From an uncultured delta proteobacterium (lineage in GTDB: Bacteria > Desulfobacterota > Syntrophia > Syntrophales > Smithellaceae), in NCBI GenBank assembly GCA_963811325.1, contig CAWEQT010000001.1:1429859-1493858 (forward strand): a DNA stretch of 64,000 nucleotides, in the 5' to 3' direction. A program made the position numbers and the translations under genes. The notes under the pieces were generated by a model. It was not told the origin of the DNA, ran no database searches, and worked only from the letters and a program-made list of their open reading frames with translations. This document shows, piece after piece, positions 4,076 to 23,092 of this stretch. The stretch's first letter is position 1. Each line of letters starts with the position of its first letter.

Positions 4076-4777
4076 CTATTTACCGTTTTTTATCAACATT
4101 GTCGCCGGATCAAGGAGCAAACTGTCTTGCGTGGAATCCGTTGATTTTCCCTTGAGAGATTTAATATACACTTCATCGCCTTTTACCGCCAACTGAACAA
4201 TAACATCGAATAAATCCGCCACGTGCAGAAAAGAAAGAGGCAAGCCGTTTTCCTGCGGCGGTTCATGGCGATGCGTATGGACGGTAAACCAGACGCTCAT
4301 TGAATATTTCCGCGCCAGTTCTTTTAATTGCACGAGCTGTCCGCGGCCCGCATCATCAAATTTAAACCCGTCAATAATTACCATATGCGGCTTGAAAATA
4401 TTCTGTTGCAGTAAATCGGTTAAACGCTCTTCCAGCTTCGGCGCGCTGAAACCTTCCACCTTGAAAGTCATTATAAAACGATAAGGCTGTATTTTTTCCC
4501 AATAATCATTAACTTCAGCAATACCGCAATTCGCGGCAATATCATGAAACAGTTCCTGATACCAGACGTCAACTTTGCTCACCGCATCGTTCAGACTTAC
4601 ATGCAGTACGGAATTTTCGCGCAACATCATATTCAAGGAAACCTGCACAAGCAATGCTGTTTTGCCTACTCCGGCATAAGCCAGAACTGCGCCAAAACCT
4701 CCGTTGGGCAAAATATCCTCGTTTTCATAACCAAGATTGATGAGCGGATTACGATAAATCATTTCTTTTTTTATCAT
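4076..4777 (-). CDS. RecA-superfamily / KaiC-like P-loop ATPase, function unknown
   Basis: 233 aa. Walker A-like LAYAGVGKTALLVQ and Walker B-like hydrophobic strand MVIIDGF are present. The size and layout match a single KaiC/RAD55-type domain. An AAGGA SD lies 7 nt upstream of the ATG. Confidence 0.5.
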   Translation of the reverse strand: MIKKEMIYRNPLINLGYENEDILPNGGFGAVLAYAGVGKTALLVQVSLNMMLRENSVLHVSLNDAVSKVDVWYQELFHDIAANCGIAEVNDYWEKIQPYRFIMTFKVEGFSAPKLEERLTDLLQQNIFKPHMVIIDGFKFDDAGRGQLVQLKELARKYSMSVWFTVHTHRHEPPQENGLPLSFLHVADLFDVIVQLAVKGDEVYIKSLKGKSTDSTQDSLLLDPATMLIKNGK

Positions 4778-4843
4778 GATAATATCCTTATAAGTTAAAT
4801 GAATAACATTTTTTCTCTTTTTACGAACAACGCATCTCGTTAA

Positions 4844-6931
4844 CTAGGCGGCTGATTTCTTATTTTCAGCCGCTTCCAGCGCGATCTTTTCCGCGATTGA
4901 CTGCGGAACCTGCCGGTAAATGGCAAATTCCATTGTGAACTGCGCTTTCCCCTGAGTGGCTGAACGCAGGATGGTTGAAAATCCAAACATTTCCGCCAGC
5001 GGCACCTGCGCTTCGATCACGCACATGACATCTTCATCCTGGGAACCGATAATCATGCCACGGCGCTGATTTAAAAGCCCCATTACCGGACCTTGAAACT
5101 CCACAGGAGTTTCCACAACTACCTTCATTATTGGTTCATGAATAACCGGCTTTGCCCGCAGATATGCTTCCTTGAACGCGCCGCGAGCCGCCGCCTGAAA
5201 GGCCATATCTGAAGAATCCACAGCGTGTGAAGCGCCATCATTAATGACTACCTTAACGCCGGTAACCGGAAACTCCAGCTTCGGCCCCTTGGCCATGCTT
5301 TGCTTAAATCCCTTTTCGCAGGCGGAAATATATTGAGTGGGAATTGCGCCGCCGAAAATTTTATTTTCAAAAATAAATTCGGTATCACTGATTGGCTCAA
5401 GATAACCGGCAATGCGGCCGAACTGACCGGCGCCACCGGTTTGTTTTTTATGGGTATAATTGAAATCGGCGCGCTGTGTAATCGTTTCGCGATAAGCGAC
5501 ACGCGGTTTTCCTGTCGTAACATCAGCGCCATATTCCCGTCGCATTCTTTCCACATAAATATCCAGATGCAGCTCGCCCATGCCTTCAATAATCGTGTCA
5601 TTGGTTTCGGCATCAACAAAAGTTTTAAAAGTCGGATCTTCCTTGGAAAATCTATTCAAAGCTTTGGCCATAGCCAACTGCGATTTGTTGTCTATAGGTA
5701 CGATCGCGAGCGATATGACCGGTTTGGGCACATACATTGAAATCATTGTCAAATTTATTCCCGGAGAGGTGAACGTATCTCCGGAAGAACATTCAATTCC
5801 AAATAATGCACCTATGTACCCGGCTCTCAGATATTCGACATCTTCCATTTGCTCGGCGTGCATTCGCACAACACGGCCAACCTTAACTTTTTTACCATTG
5901 CGAATATTGACAATTGTTGAACCCTTCGCCAGCGTTCCCTGATAAACGCGAATATAGGTTAATTGCCCGTACTGGCCATCTTCCAATTTAAAGACCAAAG
6001 CGACAATTGGTTTTTCCGGATCACTGTCCAGCACAACTATTTCCTCGTTCTTGTCCATATCCATCGCCACATTTTCTATCTCGGAAGGACAGGGCAAAAG
6101 ATAATTTACACCATCGAGCAATGGCTGTATGCCTTTGTTTTTATACGCTGAGCCCATATAAACAGGCGTTATTTCTCTTTCCAATGTACCTTTGCGTAGC
6201 GCCGCGTAAATTAATTCAGAAGTTATTTCGCGTTCATTGAGAATTGCATCCGTCAACTCATCGGAAAATAACGAAGCGGCATCAATCAATTCCTCCCTTT
6301 TCGCTTTGGCTTCTGCCAGAAGGTTTTGCGGAATTTCCGCCTCGCGGACAATTTCACCATTATCGCCATCAAAATAAAGCGCCTTCATGCCAACTAAATC
6401 AACAACACCTTCGGCTTCATTTTCCAGACCAATGGGAATCTGCATGGCCACGGCATTGTGTCCCAGCTTTGTTCTTAACTGGCTGATTACACGTAAAGGA
6501 TTGGCGCCACTGCGGTCGCATTTATTAATAAAGGCGATGCACGGAACTTTATATCTTTTCATCTGCCGGTCAACTGTGATGGATTGCGACTGAACGCCGC
6601 CCACGGAGCATAAAACGAGAATAGCGCCGTCCAGAACACGGAGCGATCTTTCCACTTCTATGGTAAAATCAACATGTCCCGGAGTGTCTATTATATTTAT
6701 CTCATGGCCTTCCCATTCACAATATGTGGCTGCCGAAGCTATGGTAATCCCACGTTCCTTTTCCAGTTCCATGGAATCCATAGTGGCTCCGACGCCATCT
6801 TTTCCCTTTACATCATGAATGGCATGAATTCTTTTCGTATAGTAAAGAATTCTCTCAGTAAGCGTTGTTTTTCCGGAATCTATATGGGCGCTTATACCGA
6901 TGTTGCGTAGTTTTTGATCTTCAATCTTCAT
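4844..6931 (-). CDS. fusA: Elongation factor G (stand-alone paralogue, not in an rpsL-rpsG-fusA-tuf context)
   Basis: 695 aa. G1 is AHIDSGKTT and G3 is [12 protein letters not shown] and full EF-G domains II-V are present ([22 protein letters not shown]). Confidence 0.9.
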
Positions 6932-18450: not shown

Positions 18451-20151
18451 ATGACAATGAGAAAAAGAATCGTAATAATCGGCGGATCGGCGGCAGGCCC
18501 CAAAGCTGCAGCAAAGGCCAGACGAATCGATAATGATGCCGAAGTCATTATCTTGCAAAAAGACTCTGATCTTTCCATGGCGTCCTGCGGTTATCCCTAT
18601 TACATCGGCGGATATTTTGATGACCGCAATATGCTTTTGTGTACTCCCACCGGAGTTGTACGAACCCCGATGTTCTATCTAAACGCCAAGGATATCGAGG
18701 CTAAAGTGAACACTGAAGTAACGGTTATTGATCGCAAAAACCATTCAGTCTCGTTTCGTAACCTTACCACAGGAGAAACCGGCACACATACCTATGACAA
18801 ACTAGTTATGGCCACTGGTTCGTATCCGCAGATGCCTCTTGTGCCAGGTCTGGATCTGGATGGTATTACAACATTGCAATCCATGAAAGACGCCGATTTT
18901 ATGCGTAAAGTTCGGGACGAAAAGAAAATCAAGAAAGCCGTCATAGTCGGAGGTGGCTTGATAGGCATTGAAACCTGTGAAGCCCTGCAATTGGCCGGGA
19001 TTGAAATCACAGTTATTGAACTTCTGCCTCAACTGCTCACTTTTCTGGATTGGGAACTGGCGAAACTTGTGGAGAATCACGTACGCAGTAAAGGAGCAAA
19101 TGTAATCACCGATAACGGCATTGCCGAATTTCTGGGCGAAAACGGCAAACTGACGACGGTTAAACTGCAAAATGGTACGGAATTGCCCTGCGAATTGGCT
19201 GTTGTAGCTATTGGTGTTCGTCCTAACGTTAAACTGGCGAAAGAAGCGGGTCTTAAAATCGGCAGGTTGGGCGGCCTAAAAGTTAATAAATATATGCAGA
19301 CATCCGATCCGGACATCTACGCGGTGGGCGACTGTATTGAAACTGTCAATCGCATTACCGGCAAGAAGGTGCTCGCCCCTTATGGTGACTTAGCCAATCT
19401 TCAGGGACGCGTGGCAGGTGAAAATGCCGCTTCGGAAAATTGCGTTACATTCCCTGGAACAATTCAAACCGGCATATGTAAGGTTTTTGATTATGCAGCT
19501 GGCTCTACCGGACTATCCGAAAAGGCAGCGAGAAAATCCGGCCATTCAGATATTATTACCGTGATTAATGCCAGCCCGGATAAGCCCGGATATATGGATG
19601 CGAAACTGATAGTGACCAAACTTGTCGCTGATAAGAAAACAGGTAAAGTGCTCGGTGCGCAATGCATCGGTCCCGGTAATGTCGGGAAGCAAATTGCCCA
19701 GTGGGCCATGGCCATTCATGGGAAATTAACTGTGGAAGATCTAATCAATGCTGATCTACCTTACGCGCCTCCTTTTTCACTGCCTATCGATCACTTTATC
19801 GCCACAGCGCATATAATGCAAAACAAAATGAAAGGCAGGATGAAGGGCATTAGCTGCAAGGAGGTCAAAGAAAAATTATCATCCAAGGAAAAACCTTTTA
19901 TTATCGATGTGCGGGGATCCGATGAATTTGAGCAAATGCGACTCGGTATAGGTGAAACTCTCATTCCATTGGGAGCGCTGCGCAAACGGATCAAGGAACT
20001 GCCTGAAGACAAAAACAGGGAAATCATCTGCTACTGTAAGATTTCACTGCGCGGCTATGAGGCGGCATTGGTACTGGAAGGAAATGGTTGGAAGAATGTG
20101 AAAGTTATGGAAGGCGGCGTCATGGCCTGGCCATATCCGAGGGAAAAATAA
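18451..20151 (+). CDS. CoA-disulfide/persulfide reductase-type FAD-dependent pyridine nucleotide-disulfide oxidoreductase with C-terminal rhodanese domain (CoADR-RHD)
   Basis: The N-terminal dinucleotide fold is IVIIGGSAAGPKAA. The single redox Cys sits in SMASCGYPYY. A second Rossmann fold reads VIVGGGLIGIE. The C-terminal rhodanese has active-site Cys ICYCKISLRG. Confidence 0.85.
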   Translation: MTMRKRIVIIGGSAAGPKAAAKARRIDNDAEVIILQKDSDLSMASCGYPYYIGGYFDDRNMLLCTPTGVVRTPMFYLNAKDIEAKVNTEVTVIDRKNHSVSFRNLTTGETGTHTYDKLVMATGSYPQMPLVPGLDLDGITTLQSMKDADFMRKVRDEKKIKKAVIVGGGLIGIETCEALQLAGIEITVIELLPQLLTFLDWELAKLVENHVRSKGANVITDNGIAEFLGENGKLTTVKLQNGTELPCELAVVAIGVRPNVKLAKEAGLKIGRLGGLKVNKYMQTSDPDIYAVGDCIETVNRITGKKVLAPYGDLANLQGRVAGENAASENCVTFPGTIQTGICKVFDYAAGSTGLSEKAARKSGHSDIITVINASPDKPGYMDAKLIVTKLVADKKTGKVLGAQCIGPGNVGKQIAQWAMAIHGKLTVEDLINADLPYAPPFSLPIDHFIATAHIMQNKMKGRMKGISCKEVKEKLSSKEKPFIIDVRGSDEFEQMRLGIGETLIPLGALRKRIKELPEDKNREIICYCKISLRGYEAALVLEGNGWKNVKVMEGGVMAWPYPREK

Positions 20152-20293
20152 ACACTAAAAAGAAAGGAGGCATTGATGTATGGCTGAGGAAATCAAGGCC
20201 GGATGTGCCAGACCCACAGGCGGACCGGTCGGAGAAAAAATCGACGTCAAAAAAGAAACCAGTCAGCAAACATCGATCAAGGAGGTCAAAACA

Positions 20294-20902
20294 ATGGTTA
20301 CTGTCGGTAAAAAGGCACCGGATTTCACTGCTCCGGCATATCACAAGGGGAAATTTATCTCTGTTCAATTGTCAGAATTTCTTGGCAAATGGGTTGTTTT
20401 ATGTTTCTATCCCGGAGATTTTACATTCGTCTGAGCTACCGAAATCTCGGCGGTCGCCGAGAAATATCCCGAATTTAAAAAACTGGGCGTTGAAGTTTTA
20501 TCCATGAGTGTCGACAGCGTCTTTGTTCATAAAATGTGGAATGACCATGAATTGTCCAAGATGGTCAAAGGCGGGATACCATATCCCATGCTTTCTGACG
20601 GTGGCGGTAAAGTTGGAAGCATCTATGGAGTTTATCTGGAAGAAGCTGGCGTGGAAGCAAGAGGAAGATTTCTGATTGACCCCGACGGTATTATTCAGGG
20701 TTTTGAAGTGCTCACTCCGCCGGTCGGACGTAATGTCAGCGAAACTTTCCGGCAGCTACACGCCTTTCAGCATGTGCGCAACAGCAAAGGAACCGAGGCC
20801 ACACCATCCGGCTGGAAACCGGGCAAACCCACGCTAAAACCAGGTCCCGATTTGGTGGGCAAGGTTTGGGAAGTCTGGAAAACTTCCATGGCTTTTGATT
20901 AA
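20294..20902 (+). CDS. Selenocysteine-containing peroxiredoxin (AhpC/Prx1 family; UGA 20432-20434 read as Sec at the peroxidatic position)
   Basis: Track ORFs 20180..20434 and 20504..20902 are in the same frame. The joined sequence reads [17 protein letters not shown]... versus the universal FYPxDFTFVCPTE. Downstream Prx homology continues ([30 protein letters not shown]). ATG 20294 lies 8 nt after AAGGAGG. A SECIS-like hairpin follows the UGA. Confidence 0.8.
20446..20461 (+). promoter_or_regulatory. Bacterial SECIS-like hairpin (CUCGGC-GGUC-GCCGAG)
   Basis: A 6-bp GC-rich stem with a GGUC loop starts exactly 11 nt after the in-frame UGA. As I recall, the E. coli fdhF minimal SECIS has the same 11-nt spacing and the same GGUC loop sequence. 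Confidence 0.65.
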
Positions 20903-20963
20903 AAATATGAAACAATCGGCGGGCGTTATAAAACTATGCTTCCGTCGACTGCATTAAAACATT

Positions 20964-21644
20964 TTAGTCGCCTTGAGCAAGCTCTTCTATTGCTTTTCTG
21001 TTAAGAATAGTGATCACACGACCATCCACGGCAAGGATTCCGTCGTTGCTCATTTTTCTAAAGGAACGGGAAAGAGCCTCGGGAGTAGCACCAAGAATTT
21101 TGGAAAGCTCTCTATGAGAGATAGTCAATTCCAGTTTATTTTTCTTTTCACCCGCATCATTGCGAAGAGCATGGAGAAGAAAAGCTGAAAGCCGTTCGGG
21201 TACTTCCTTCAATGCCAGAGATTCTATAAGCGTCATGAAATCCTTGAGACGCTGTGAAAGTATCTGAATGATATTGAGAAGCAACGCCGGTTCTTTTTTG
21301 GCAATGGCTTCCATAAACTCTCCGGGGATGATCAATACCGCGCTTTCTTCAATGGCCATGGCACTGGCGGGAAAGGAATCCGTAGCAAAGGCTGTGCACA
21401 AGCCGAAAGGATCACCCTGACCTAAAAGAGATAAAGTCTGCTCCCTGCCTTCGGCAGAACTCTTGGAGAGTTTTAGCTGGCCGGAAATCACGACATAAAA
21501 TGACCGGATCGGATCTGCCTCGCCGATTACTAATTCGCCAGGCTTGAATTTTTTATATATCGCCCGTGATGCCAACAGCTTTAAATTTTCTGCTGATATG
21601 CCTCTAAACAGGGAGACATCTTGTATTTGTTTAATAATGTCCAT
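20964..21644 (-). CDS. Crp/Fnr-family transcriptional regulator
   Basis: The cNMP-binding-type N-terminal domain reads LFRGIS...FKPGELVIGEAD...FYVVISGQLKL. The C-terminal HTH is SHRELSKILGATPEALSRSFRKM, with the E--SR recognition motif. There is no N-terminal Cys cluster. Confidence 0.9.
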   Translation of the reverse strand: MDIIKQIQDVSLFRGISAENLKLLASRAIYKKFKPGELVIGEADPIRSFYVVISGQLKLSKSSAEGREQTLSLLGQGDPFGLCTAFATDSFPASAMAIEESAVLIIPGEFMEAIAKKEPALLLNIIQILSQRLKDFMTLIESLALKEVPERLSAFLLHALRNDAGEKKNKLELTISHRELSKILGATPEALSRSFRKMSNDGILAVDGRVITILNRKAIEELAQGD

Positions 21645-21663
21645 GGTAAATTTTTCTCTTAAG

Positions 21664-21681
21664 CATTGATCTAGATCAATG
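21664..21681. promoter_or_regulatory. Perfect 18-bp palindrome containing an FNR-type box TTGAT-CTAG-ATCAA
   Basis: The sequence is cattgatctagatcaatg. It lies in the divergent crp/fnr-trxA intergenic region. Its centre (21672.5) is ~40 nt upstream of a predicted TSS downstream of a TATAGT -10 element at 21700-21705. Confidence 0.7.
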
Positions 21682-21779
21682 ACATCTTGAAAAATAAAAT
21701 ATAGTTATAGAATTAAAAGAGGAAAACAATTAACACATAGAGAAAAGAAATAAAACAATTTTATCAGGAGGAAAGAAAA

Positions 21780-22115
21780 ATGAGTAAGCAGGAATTAGTA
21801 AAACATGCAGATGATAGTAATTTTGAGACAATGGTTTTAAAGGCCGATAAACCCGTTCTGGTAGATTTCTGGGCTCCGTGGTGTGGACCTTGCCGTGCTA
21901 TTGGTCCAATATTGGAAGAAGTGGCAGACGTTTATGGTGATCGGGTGAATATTGTGAAGGTTAATGTAGATGATAATCCTCAGATATCAGGGAGATACGG
22001 TGTTAGAAGTATTCCCACATTACTGATTATCAAGGATGGAAAGGTAACAGATACCACGGTTGGTTTGGCATCGAAGGACCAATTGACCGATCTTATCAAT
22101 CGGAATCTTAATTAG
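21780..22115 (+). CDS. trxA: Thioredoxin
   Basis: 111 aa with the motif DFWAPWCGPCRAIGP. AGGAGG lies upstream. Confidence 0.9.
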   Translation: MSKQELVKHADDSNFETMVLKADKPVLVDFWAPWCGPCRAIGPILEEVADVYGDRVNIVKVNVDDNPQISGRYGVRSIPTLLIIKDGKVTDTTVGLASKDQLTDLINRNLN

Positions 22116-22135
22116 TTGGAATAAGGTGAATAAAA

Positions 22136-22297
22136 ATGAGTGACATTCTTGTTTTTGTTATTATAATAGCGGTATGGTTTTTCTTGCAGGTATGGCTTTT
22201 ACTCAGGATGGGAGTTTCTACCTGAGTAAAACCTGCCTGTCCGGTCGAGGATAGGAAGAAAAGGAAAGATTTGCCAGAATCTAAAAGTGATCGGTAA
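22136..22297 (+). CDS. Candidate small membrane selenoprotein (53 codons if UGA 22223-22225 is Sec; otherwise a 29-aa membrane peptide ending at 22225)
   Basis: AAGGTGA lies 6 nt before the ATG. The translation is MSDILVFVIIIAVWFFLQVWLLLRMGVST-U-VKPACPVEDRKKRKDLPESKSDR. The frame stays open for 23 codons after the UGA. GGUC lies at +21..24 from the UGA, as in the Prx gene, within an imperfect bulged hairpin. Confidence 0.35.
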
Positions 22298-22344
22298 ACT
22301 TTTAACAAGTTTTAATTGTCTCATTAACCAGAAAGGAGATGTAT

Positions 22345-22578
22345 ATGAAAAAAAATATGGGAACCATCGACAGAACTGTAAGAGTATTGTTGGCCATTGT
22401 TGTTGGTATTCTTTATCTGACTGGTAACATTTCCGGCATGGCGGCGATTATTCTGGGCATACTGGCGGTCGTATTCATTTTGACAAGTGCAATCGGCTTC
22501 TGCCCTCTATATTTCCCCTTTAAAATTTCCACTATCGGTAAAAGCGACGGCATAGAAATAAAAAAATTAAATAATTAA
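22345..22578 (+). CDS. DUF2892 (YgaP-like) small inner-membrane protein
   Basis: MGTIDRTVRVLLAIVVG...LTSAIGFCPLY is the DUF2892 signature. ATG 22345 lies 6 nt after AAAGGAG. Confidence 0.8.
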   Translation: MKKNMGTIDRTVRVLLAIVVGILYLTGNISGMAAIILGILAVVFILTSAIGFCPLYFPFKISTIGKSDGIEIKKLNN

Positions 22579-22609
22579 AATTCAACCATAAAGACTTGAG
22601 AGGGATATA

Positions 22610-22714
22610 ATGGATTCGCGCCAATATGGCAGGTGTTATAAAAAAGCATATGGTCGGCGACTGCGTCATGCCCTGCGAGGATATATTTGCGAAAGTTTTC
22701 ACGAGATAATATGA
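22610..22714 (+). CDS. Possible 34-aa basic peptide (speculative)
   Basis: GAGAGGGA lies 4-5 nt upstream of the ATG. The translation is MDSRQYGRCYKKAYGRRLRHALRGYICESFHEII. It falls below the track length cut-off and matches no family I recognise. Confidence 0.2.
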   Translation: MDSRQYGRCYKKAYGRRLRHALRGYICESFHEII

Positions 22715-22882
22715 TATATTATTAAAAAATATCACTCTTGTGAAATTTTTCTCTCTGAAAAATGTTTTATGGACTTTATAAGAAATTATTATTGAAGTAA
22801 AAGTTCATAATCTCCGATAAAGGTTATCTATGCGTTTAACCTTACTTTGTAAATGGACAATCAAAACATAGAGGTCGAAGGC

Positions 22883-23092
22883 ATGAAAGTTATTGTTGAC
22901 CGTGATTTATGCGAAGGTATCGGAAATTGCGTGGCCATTGCCCCCGGCGTTTTTGCACTGGATAAACAAAACAAAGCAGTTGCAACACATATTGAATCCA
23001 TCAGCCAGGAAAAAATCAGAGAAGCGGCTGAAAGCTGCCCACTGGATGCTATTATTCTTCAGGACGATCAGGGCGAGCAGATTTATCCTTGA
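22883..23092 (+). CDS. Small single-cluster ferredoxin
   Basis: MKVIVDRDLCEGIGNCVAIAPGVFALD...ESCPLDAI has the CxxGxC...C(P) layout of [3Fe-4S]/[4Fe-4S] mono-cluster ferredoxins. ATG 22883 lies after AGAGGTCGAAGG. Confidence 0.8.
   Translation: MKVIVDRDLCEGIGNCVAIAPGVFALDKQNKAVATHIESISQEKIREAAESCPLDAIILQDDQGEQIYP

Follow-up and report, generated by a model that had tools for sequence, protein, structure and literature searches.

In a window of 64,000 nucleotides from an uncultured delta proteobacterium (the whole stretch analysed here, contig CAWEQT010000001.1) we studied a small gene on the forward strand, at 22136..22297, that directly follows trxA. Comparison with its relatives indicates that it is very probably a genuine selenoprotein gene, in which the UGA at 22223 is read as selenocysteine (Sec). 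Its identity and decoding together with a link to thioredoxin, put as one joint claim, are likely as well. The gene has 29 codons, the UGA, 23 further codons and a TAA, and would give a product of 53 residues. The case is carried by the structure of the gene, the conservation of its UGA, relatives with cysteine in the place of Sec, a covarying hairpin behind the UGA, and synteny with trxA. The gene represents a new selenoprotein family that uses standard bacterial decoding, not a new kind of decoding.

The ATG at 22136 lies 20 nt after the stop codon of trxA (TAG, 22113-22115) and 6 nt after a Shine-Dalgarno sequence, AAGGTGA (22123..22129, forward strand), as an initial annotation of this stretch had read it. 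A four-way alignment with relatives keeps a purine-rich block at this position. The part before the UGA is MSDILVFVIIIAVWFFLQVWLLLRMGVST, 29 codons up to TGA 22223-22225 (Sec residue 30), and the part after it is VKPACPVEDRKKRKDLPESKSDR, 23 codons with the frame open to TAA 22295-22297. We found both parts on the sequence as proposed, and also the U-x4-C arrangement that Sec30 forms with Cys35 (codon TGT, 22238..22240). The upstream gene trxA (21780..22115, forward strand) encodes 111 residues with the WCGPC motif (Pfam PF00085, E 6.6e-32) and is the first gene of a bicistronic unit. The only match to a terminator after trxA is a weak 5-bp stem at 22087-22103, inside the 3' end of trxA, and it is not convincing. 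Hence, co-transcription of the small gene with trxA, across a gap of 20 nt and with a Shine-Dalgarno sequence of its own, stands as the default.

Orthologues and the in-frame UGA codon

Relatives of the gene were reached by synteny. We looked up TrxA homologues with 70-87% identity on their contigs, which carry a divergent crp-family gene, trxA, a gap of ~220 nt or more, and often a DUF2892 gene next. In every such relative the gap after trxA holds the same small open reading frame (ORF): 29 codons, a TGA and an in-frame extension that closes at about the same point. We used a profile built from eight read-through products as the follow-up query. In a metagenome scan it found 37 further loci, and in each of them codon 30 is TGA and the frame stays open beyond it. 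In the protein database it found many stubs of 29 residues called 'hypothetical protein' and one full-length call of 70 residues (P0121, locus L144) with Cys at the Sec position. Altogether 39 nucleotide sequences are distinct; 38 of them have TGA and one has TGT. All 38 distinct TGA sequences consist of 29 codons, the TGA and 17-34 in-frame codons. The prediction that orthologues beside trxA or a DUF2892 gene would show a conserved TGA or a Cys codon was thus borne out, with TGA at codon 30 in 38/38 and TGT in L144. The initial annotation had pointed to Desulfobacterota genomes for the search. The source names of the TrxA homologues (Deltaproteobacteria HGW-12 and HGW-13, Smithellaceae, Smithella) place them more narrowly as Syntrophales-like, Smithellaceae being a family of Syntrophales, and not as generic Desulfobacterota.

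Other searches returned less. A single-sequence protein search with the 53-mer (U entered as C) gave no candidate with enough common 5-residue words; the protein search succeeded once the syntenic orthologues were aligned. A scan of species genomes with TrxA reached only loci of at most 62% identity (L001-L080), none of which holds the small gene. The lone tblastn match, L025, was rejected as an out-of-frame overlap with an ORF of 229 residues. Two copies look damaged. L111 (1330-1494) has a weakened hairpin, GVFT for GVST and a TrxA match in two pieces, and P0154 (NCBI, 63 residues) resembles a doubly frameshifted copy, with the N-terminus and tail in frame and the middle shifted. Both may be decaying copies or sequencing errors.

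The sequence after the UGA behaves as coding sequence. The Cys at U+5 is invariant in 39/39 distinct sequences, with the codons TGT and TGC both in use, and it is kept in the relatives that have Cys at the Sec position. Post-UGA entropy is 0.66, 0.55 and 0.98 for codon positions 1, 2 and 3, and 32% of the codon differences are synonymous in frame 0 vs 14% and 19% in the shifted frames. Conservation spans the UGA on both sides (G-x-[ST]-T-U-x-[KR]-x-x-C-[PS]), and the downstream motif U-x-[KR]-x-x-C-[PS], whose conservation the initial annotation had proposed as a check, is kept in 38 distinct sequences.

The pairing of Sec with Cys is seen most directly in L144, which has TGT at the Sec codon within the same gene order (DUF134, crp, trxA, small gene, DUF2892). 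Searching the full library with P0121 (phmmer) brought up 73 cluster representatives. In 28 of them a Cys stands at the Sec column and another at +5, typically as L-P-x-L-G-I-x-T-C-M-S-G-A-C, 24 end exactly at the Sec column, and 14 show Trp there (P0160, P0162, P0165, P0166, P0174, P0180, P0182, P0184, P0190, P0192, P0200, P0202, P0211 and P0227). The single Trp form checked in DNA, L145 (109-273), has TGA at this codon; hence, its Trp is a gene call made under a table with UGA as Trp. L145 belongs to a second TGA clade, ILPKLGIST-U-MRDSCQV, in which the TGA is thereby verified. Cys forms are about as common as Sec forms among the 73 representatives. The family is widespread and unannotated, with other members carrying Cys (T-C-M-S-G-A-C). 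Three representatives (P0201, P0209, P0217) have Gly or Arg at the Sec/Cys column, which could be true substitutions (CGA and AGA are one step from TGA) or calls made under other codes.

We rejected a genome-wide reassignment of UGA to Trp or Gly: 12 of the 36 non-overlapping ORFs of at least 200 residues in the window end in TGA. Several orthologue tails of the small gene themselves end in TGA. Sec is decoded elsewhere in the same genome, in a peroxiredoxin with UGA at the peroxidatic position. This Sec-peroxiredoxin (20180..20902, forward strand; TGA 20432-20434) has the motif PGDFTFV-U, which fits the PxxxTxxU pattern described for such proteins (PMC13188914), and its hairpin at 20445-20462 served as the in-genome reference for a selenocysteine insertion sequence (SECIS). 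Every public gene call splits this gene (PGDFTFV-U-ATE) into genes of 84 and 132 residues.

The hairpin downstream of the UGA

A SECIS-type hairpin lies at 22233..22258 on the forward strand. Counted from the U of the UGA, its 7-bp upper stem joins +14..+20 to +27..+33 (22236-22242 / 22249-22255), its loop is GGUCGA (22243-22248), and lower pairs form between C11 and G36 and between U12 and A35. The minimum-energy fold (RNAfold) pairs C14-G33 through C20-G27, at -12.8 kcal/mol with z -2.6 to -2.8. The peroxiredoxin hairpin likewise has 7 bp (+14..+20 / +25..+31), with the loop GGUC and -12.2 kcal/mol, so that the two share offset, stem length and loop start. The initial annotation had noted GGUC at +21..+24 in both genes, and this holds. 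The hairpin it had drawn was in the wrong register, since RNAfold gives the 7-bp fold at +14..+33 with the loop GGUCGA, and it had wrongly described the structure as much weaker than that of the peroxiredoxin. The bacterial SECIS model of PMC13188914 allows a loop of 3-9 nt, an upper stem of 4-16 bp, a G as first or second loop nucleotide, a distance of 16-37 nt between UGA and loop, and a minimum free energy of at most -7.5 kcal/mol. The hairpin fits it throughout, with a 6-nt loop, a 7-bp stem, 17 nt of spacing and -12.8 kcal/mol.

Such hairpins are not rare. Generic bacterial SECIS criteria were passed by 76 of the 2418 TGA triplets in the window (3.1%). The further demand for a loop that starts with GGU and a stem of 6 bp or more left 4/2418 (0.17%), two of them being the small gene and the Sec-peroxiredoxin. 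We rejected the remaining two strict SECIS-like hairpins, which are out of frame or run into stops at once after the TGA. Taken alone, the hairpin is not significant; the comparative evidence lifts the case far above chance.

For covariation we used an ungapped alignment of 48 nt from the UGA. In register, 88.9% of the helix cells are paired, vs 32-47% with the 3' arm slid by 1-3 nt, and 23 helix cells carry double changes; none of 500 shuffles reached the observed values, which are to be read in the light of the kinship of the sequences and of the coding role of the hairpin arms. RNAalifold gives a 6-bp core (15-20 / 27-32) with compensatory changes at three pairs. Switches between C-G and U-A occur at pairs 15:32, 18:29 and 19:28, and 3-4 pairs are compensatory overall. 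These switches are coupled to changes in the protein, from Pro to Ser and from Asp to Ser or Gly; for example, Cys-Pro...Asp becomes Cys-Ser...Ser with the arms GCUGCUC / GAGCAGA. Since coordinated amino-acid changes follow the pair switches, the structure constrains the protein, and not only the reverse. In the loop, G22 is invariant and G21 nearly so. The covariation that the initial annotation had proposed to look for is thus present in register. A crude automatic SECIS parse was passed by 27 of the 39 sequences, and most of the others have this hairpin too, but bulged or in competition with another fold.

The hairpin is retained in the divergent TGA clade (L145, ...CQVTGKK...), with GGU at +21..+23, other arm sequences and z -2.06. 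Neither of the distant Cys forms, L146 and L148, has such a hairpin or loop, and both fold no better than shuffled sequence (z -0.35 and +0.22, vs -2.76 and -2.06 in Sec forms). Hence, in these cases, the hairpin accompanies the TGA rather than the protein family. Rfam gave no match, either in a scan of the whole window at the gathering thresholds or in a scan of 20000-23000 at E ≤10, but this result is uninformative, as the accepted SECIS of the peroxiredoxin in the same stretch was not detected either.

Protein architecture and comparison with known families

Codons 4-23 (22145..22204) encode a predicted single transmembrane helix, ILVFVIIIAVWFFLQVWLLL, with a Kyte-Doolittle 19-residue mean of up to 2.85. 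The N-terminus reads M-[SNK]-[DE] across the family, and the N-terminal flank has a mean net charge of -0.8. The C-terminal flank (21 residues around and after Sec) has a mean net charge of +3.7 and is the more positive of the two in 39/39 sequences. By the positive-inside rule, this would put the N-terminus outside and U-x4-C at the cytoplasmic face. The predicted product is thus a single-pass protein, N-out and C-in, whose basic tail would lie in the cytoplasm. The tail itself, RKKRKDLPESKSDR (22253..22294), is of low complexity; orthologue tails vary in sequence and length, always in frame. The proteins have 47-64 residues, with no thioredoxin fold and no globular domain.

The U-x4-C centre stands seven residues past the helix, within the family motif W-x5-W-x-L-P-x-x-G-x-x-T-U-x4-C. 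Invariant or near-invariant positions are W14, W20, L22, P23, G26, T29, C/U30 and C35, of which W14, W20 and L22 lie in the helix of the window copy. The conserved helix positions suggest that the helix does more than anchor the protein and is probably in contact with a partner. We rejected a lipoprotein signal peptide (G-I-S-T-C), judging by inspection against the consensus (a basic n-region, an uninterrupted h-region and the lipobox L-[AS]-[GA]-C): the N-terminus is acidic, an Arg or Lys stands 6 residues before the Cys/Sec, and the residue at -1 is an invariant Thr.

The initial annotation had called the gene undescribed, which agrees with our searches. Neither the 53-mer nor the Cys forms matched a Pfam-A family at E ≤1, save for a chance PspB match of the 53-mer. 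In NCBIfam release 20 the 53-mer had no match at E ≤10 and the Cys forms had only chance matches at E ≤1. The family profile gave only chance matches to PDB sequences (E ~1 or above). The 2026 inventory of 119 prokaryotic selenoprotein families (PMC13188914) lists no single-helix S-T-U-x4-C protein, and a search of the literature on small membrane selenoproteins in bacteria gave nothing relevant. Members in public records are named only 'hypothetical protein' (e.g., MBN2804016.1).

The closest likeness in layout is to eukaryotic SELENOS and SELENOK, also small proteins, whose single transmembrane helix is N-terminal and whose Sec lies in a flexible, charged tail in the cytosol. SELENOS forms a Cys-Sec selenenylsulfide that is reduced by the thioredoxin system, and it resembles the small gene product both in predicted layout and in the link to thioredoxin. 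The likeness is architectural only, as the product matches neither the SELENOK nor the SELENOS family of Pfam (whole Pfam-A, E ≤1). It differs in the place of Sec (seven residues past the helix, not near the C-terminus), in the order U-x4-C, and in a SECIS placed within the coding sequence in the bacterial manner. At most, the likeness is convergent.

Among bacterial proteins, Sec/Cys redox selenoproteins such as Sec-peroxiredoxin and the thioredoxin-like UxxC/CxxU proteins (PMC13188914) share with the small gene an in-frame UGA with a SECIS, Cys homologues and a redox neighbourhood. In contrast to them, its product has U-x4-C, a membrane anchor and only 47-64 residues without a globular domain. 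MerT and MerF are also small proteins of the inner membrane that carry paired Cys (or Sec) on its cytoplasmic side, and the known selenoproteins include a MerT with Sec ('putative mercuric transport protein', PF02411; PMC13188914). They have two or three helices where the small gene product has one; the product moreover has no CC pair in the helix, no Pfam MerT match and no mer genes nearby. The YgaP/DUF2892 proteins (PF11127) of ArsR-regulated sulfur-stress operons are recurrent neighbours of the gene. They too are small and membrane-bound, with a conserved Cys close to the membrane face (GFCPLY). They form a separate two-helix family and are a candidate partner of the product, not a relative. 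AcrZ, a small accessory protein of RND pumps, is also a single-helix protein of ~50 residues with a cytoplasmic tail, and efflux genes follow the small gene in seven loci; however, the sequences do not match, a Cys/Sec pair is missing from AcrZ, and the link to pumps does not extend to the family at large.

Gene neighbourhood, proposed role and alternative explanations

In 36 of the 39 distinct loci the gene immediately before the small gene is trxA, and a divergent Crp-family regulator adjoins trxA in most of them. Of the three loci without an upstream trxA, one has only 175 nt upstream, and two have long flanks with no TrxA match. No trxA precedes the small gene in the family loci L125 (2501-4451) and L129 (2501-2650); in L125 the Sec form is flanked by a crp-type gene on one side and, on the other, by a CoA-disulfide-reductase/rhodanese gene much like that of the window at 18451-20151. 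DUF2892 genes are found downstream in 10/39 loci, and we therefore rejected an obligatory pairing with DUF2892. Of the genomic context first proposed, the tie to trxA is conserved and the tie to DUF2892 is partial. Other downstream genes encode YeeE/YedE, RND/MFP/OEP efflux systems, a sensor kinase with a sigma-54 activator or a CoA-disulfide-reductase/rhodanese fusion, or are convergent.

The distant Cys forms have their own surroundings. L146 holds genes for an ArsR-type helix-turn-helix (HTH) protein, a fusion of rhodanese with a YgaP transmembrane domain, a peroxiredoxin, a Lactamase_B-rhodanese protein, a CMD protein and MacB-type efflux. L148 holds genes for rhodanese, DUF2892, thioredoxin, an ECF sigma factor with a zf-HC2 anti-sigma factor, an ArsR-type HTH protein and RND efflux. 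We take these gene sets to be of the persulfide or reactive-sulfur-stress operon type (cst/BigR/YgaVP). YgaP-like transmembrane proteins are encoded near both distant Cys forms, and DUF2892 also in L144. In L146 a protein of 243 residues without a Pfam domain (4192-4923) begins 4 nt ahead of the stop codon that closes the Cys-form small gene, and this overlap makes translational coupling likely. In L148 the ArsR-type HTH gene overlaps the end of the small gene likewise.

In seven loci, genes for efflux components (outer-membrane factor, membrane-fusion protein, RND or MacB/ABC) come right after the small gene or after the small gene and DUF2892. Five of these loci hold Sec forms (L090 3905-6336, L101 3435-5336, L116 2788-5161, L119 2817-4289 and L120 2778-5140) and two hold Cys forms (L146 5471-8195 and L148 4519-8204). 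The association is recurrent, not universal, and might point to a role as a pump accessory.

The most parsimonious mechanism that these data suggest is as follows. If selenium is inserted as we infer, it is the hairpin at +14..+33 (loop GGUCGA) that would bring in SelB with its Sec-tRNA(Sec). At the membrane surface on the cytoplasmic side, the selenolate of Sec30 would react first with an oxidant or with a sulfane-sulfur or disulfide substrate. Cys35 would then resolve the intermediate to a selenenylsulfide, which the co-encoded TrxA would reduce. The conserved helix motif suggests that the protein docks on a membrane partner, for which a YgaP-like/DUF2892 protein and an efflux or transport system are candidates. 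The setting may be a regulon for thiol or reactive-sulfur stress under the divergent Crp-type regulator. A redox centre recycled by thioredoxin has, in our judgement, about even chances, and a role specific to reactive sulfur is doubtful; both proposals draw on gene neighbourhood, motif and charge. Still tentative, though we grant it slightly more, is the broader picture. In it the protein would be the first prokaryotic single-pass membrane-anchored selenoprotein, convergent with SELENOS/SELENOK and the Sec branch of a large unnamed [C/U]-x4-C family. Members of that family would act at the cytoplasmic face as thioredoxin-driven relays or Se-switchable accessory subunits, in defence against reactive-sulfur or thiol stress, with YgaP-like/DUF2892 or efflux systems.

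Several points weigh against these conclusions. The sequences are related, so counts of conserved features are counts of non-independent events. The consensus hairpin is not the minimum-energy fold in 5/39 sequences, and that of L111 is weak. Frame +2 after the UGA is also fairly open, with a median of 17 codons, because the region is purine-rich. None of selA, selB, selC and selD lies in the 64-kb window, nor was any tRNA gene found there. The window copy has Leu23 (codon 22202-22204, WLLLRMG) at a near-invariant Pro, which is present (WLLPR) in all 38 other distinct sequences and in every aligned Cys-form representative. On the functional side, what lies downstream differs greatly between loci (DUF2892, YeeE, RND efflux, a two-component system or nothing), and the contexts of distant Cys forms come from two loci only, L146 and L148.

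The gene might simply stop at the UGA, with a membrane peptide of 29 residues as its sole product, the hairpin being an element of the mRNA (for stability, processing or coupling) and the open frame an incidental result of the purine-rich sequence. In many public contigs this is just the product that gene finders call, its 29 residues are the best-conserved part of the family, and the openness of frame +2 and the generic SECIS-like hairpins behind 3% of TGA triplets also speak for it. We nevertheless hold it to be highly improbable, because the syntenic orthologue L144 has TGT and reads straight through, and in 28 Cys-form representatives a Cys falls on the UGA in the alignment and the second Cys is retained. 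The Cys at U+5 is invariant while using both TGT and TGC, and codon positions and synonymous differences favour frame 0. The hairpin goes with the TGA forms, is absent from two distant Cys forms, and equals the peroxiredoxin SECIS in loop and offset. A genuine selenoprotein gene could also have two outputs, the UGA being a switch for selenium status: a full-length redox form with selenium, and, without selenium or upon termination, the 29-residue helix (W-x5-W-x-LP-x2-G-x2-T) as a truncated subunit that binds a partner. Sec insertion competes with termination in bacterial Sec decoding, the UGA stands exactly at the end of the conserved block, and conservation is higher in the helix and juxtamembrane motif than in the tail, pointing to partner binding that is independent of the tail. 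Yet a function of the truncated form is conjecture, and Cys forms cannot switch although they are about as common as Sec forms. This argues that the full-length product is the conserved functional unit, and we regard such a switch as improbable.

The main functional rival to thioredoxin-linked redox chemistry accepts the selenoprotein and takes U/C-x4-C as a ligand site for soft metals or metalloids (Hg, Cd, Cu(I), As(III), Se/Te species), which would hand them off to, or sense them for, an adjacent efflux pump or ArsR-type regulator, as the Cys pairs on the cytoplasmic side of MerT/MerF do. Families of MerT-like and of metal-binding proteins with Sec are already known (PMC13188914). The loci L090, L101, L116, L119, L120, L146 and L148 have RND/MFP/OEP or MacB efflux genes directly downstream, with matches to CzcB/CusB-type membrane-fusion proteins, ArsR-family HTH genes adjoin both distant Cys forms, and L144 has a TehB-like methyltransferase downstream. 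However, the sole near-universal neighbour is thioredoxin, not a pump or metal regulator, and no MerT, MerF or HMA match was found in Pfam at E ≤1. The ArsR neighbours are grouped with rhodanese and Lactamase_B-rhodanese genes, a layout known from persulfide-sensing rather than metal-sensing operons. We consider metal binding unlikely.

Very short ORFs are a blind spot of selenoprotein discovery. The 29-codon part before the UGA is at the lower limit of gene finders, and public data therefore hold either stubs of 29 residues or products with Trp at the Sec position, made under a table with UGA as Trp. If the selenoprotein reading is true, one family is added to the 119 known in prokaryotes, with an architecture (membrane-tethered, no globular fold, U-x4-C) that has no counterpart among them. 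It would also name a conserved partner gene for thioredoxin in syntrophic, methanogenesis-associated Syntrophales, while the wider [C/U]-x4-C family of small proteins sits in operons for persulfide and thiol stress. A protein of 53 residues with Sec is within reach of chemical synthesis, which makes the proposed chemistry directly testable.

In the window, the unit is flanked by the divergent Crp/Fnr-family regulator (20964..21644, reverse strand; Pfam cNMP_binding and HTH_Crp_2) and by a DUF2892/YgaP-like transmembrane-domain gene with the GFCPLY motif (22345..22578, forward strand; Pfam PF11127, E 3.9e-20). Its surroundings include genes for the CoA-disulfide-reductase/rhodanese fusion, the Sec-peroxiredoxin, NifS/NifU, DsrE and TusA. 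A promoter-like site lies inside the small ORF at 22140-22167 (GTGACA, a 16-nt spacer and TATAAT; 11/12 matches) and could drive the DUF2892 gene; its TATAAT is kept in three aligned relatives, yet coincides with Ile codons. The gap of 274 nt between the DUF2892 and ferredoxin genes (22579-22852) holds an Arg-rich ORF of 34 codons (22610-22714) and several promoter-like sites.

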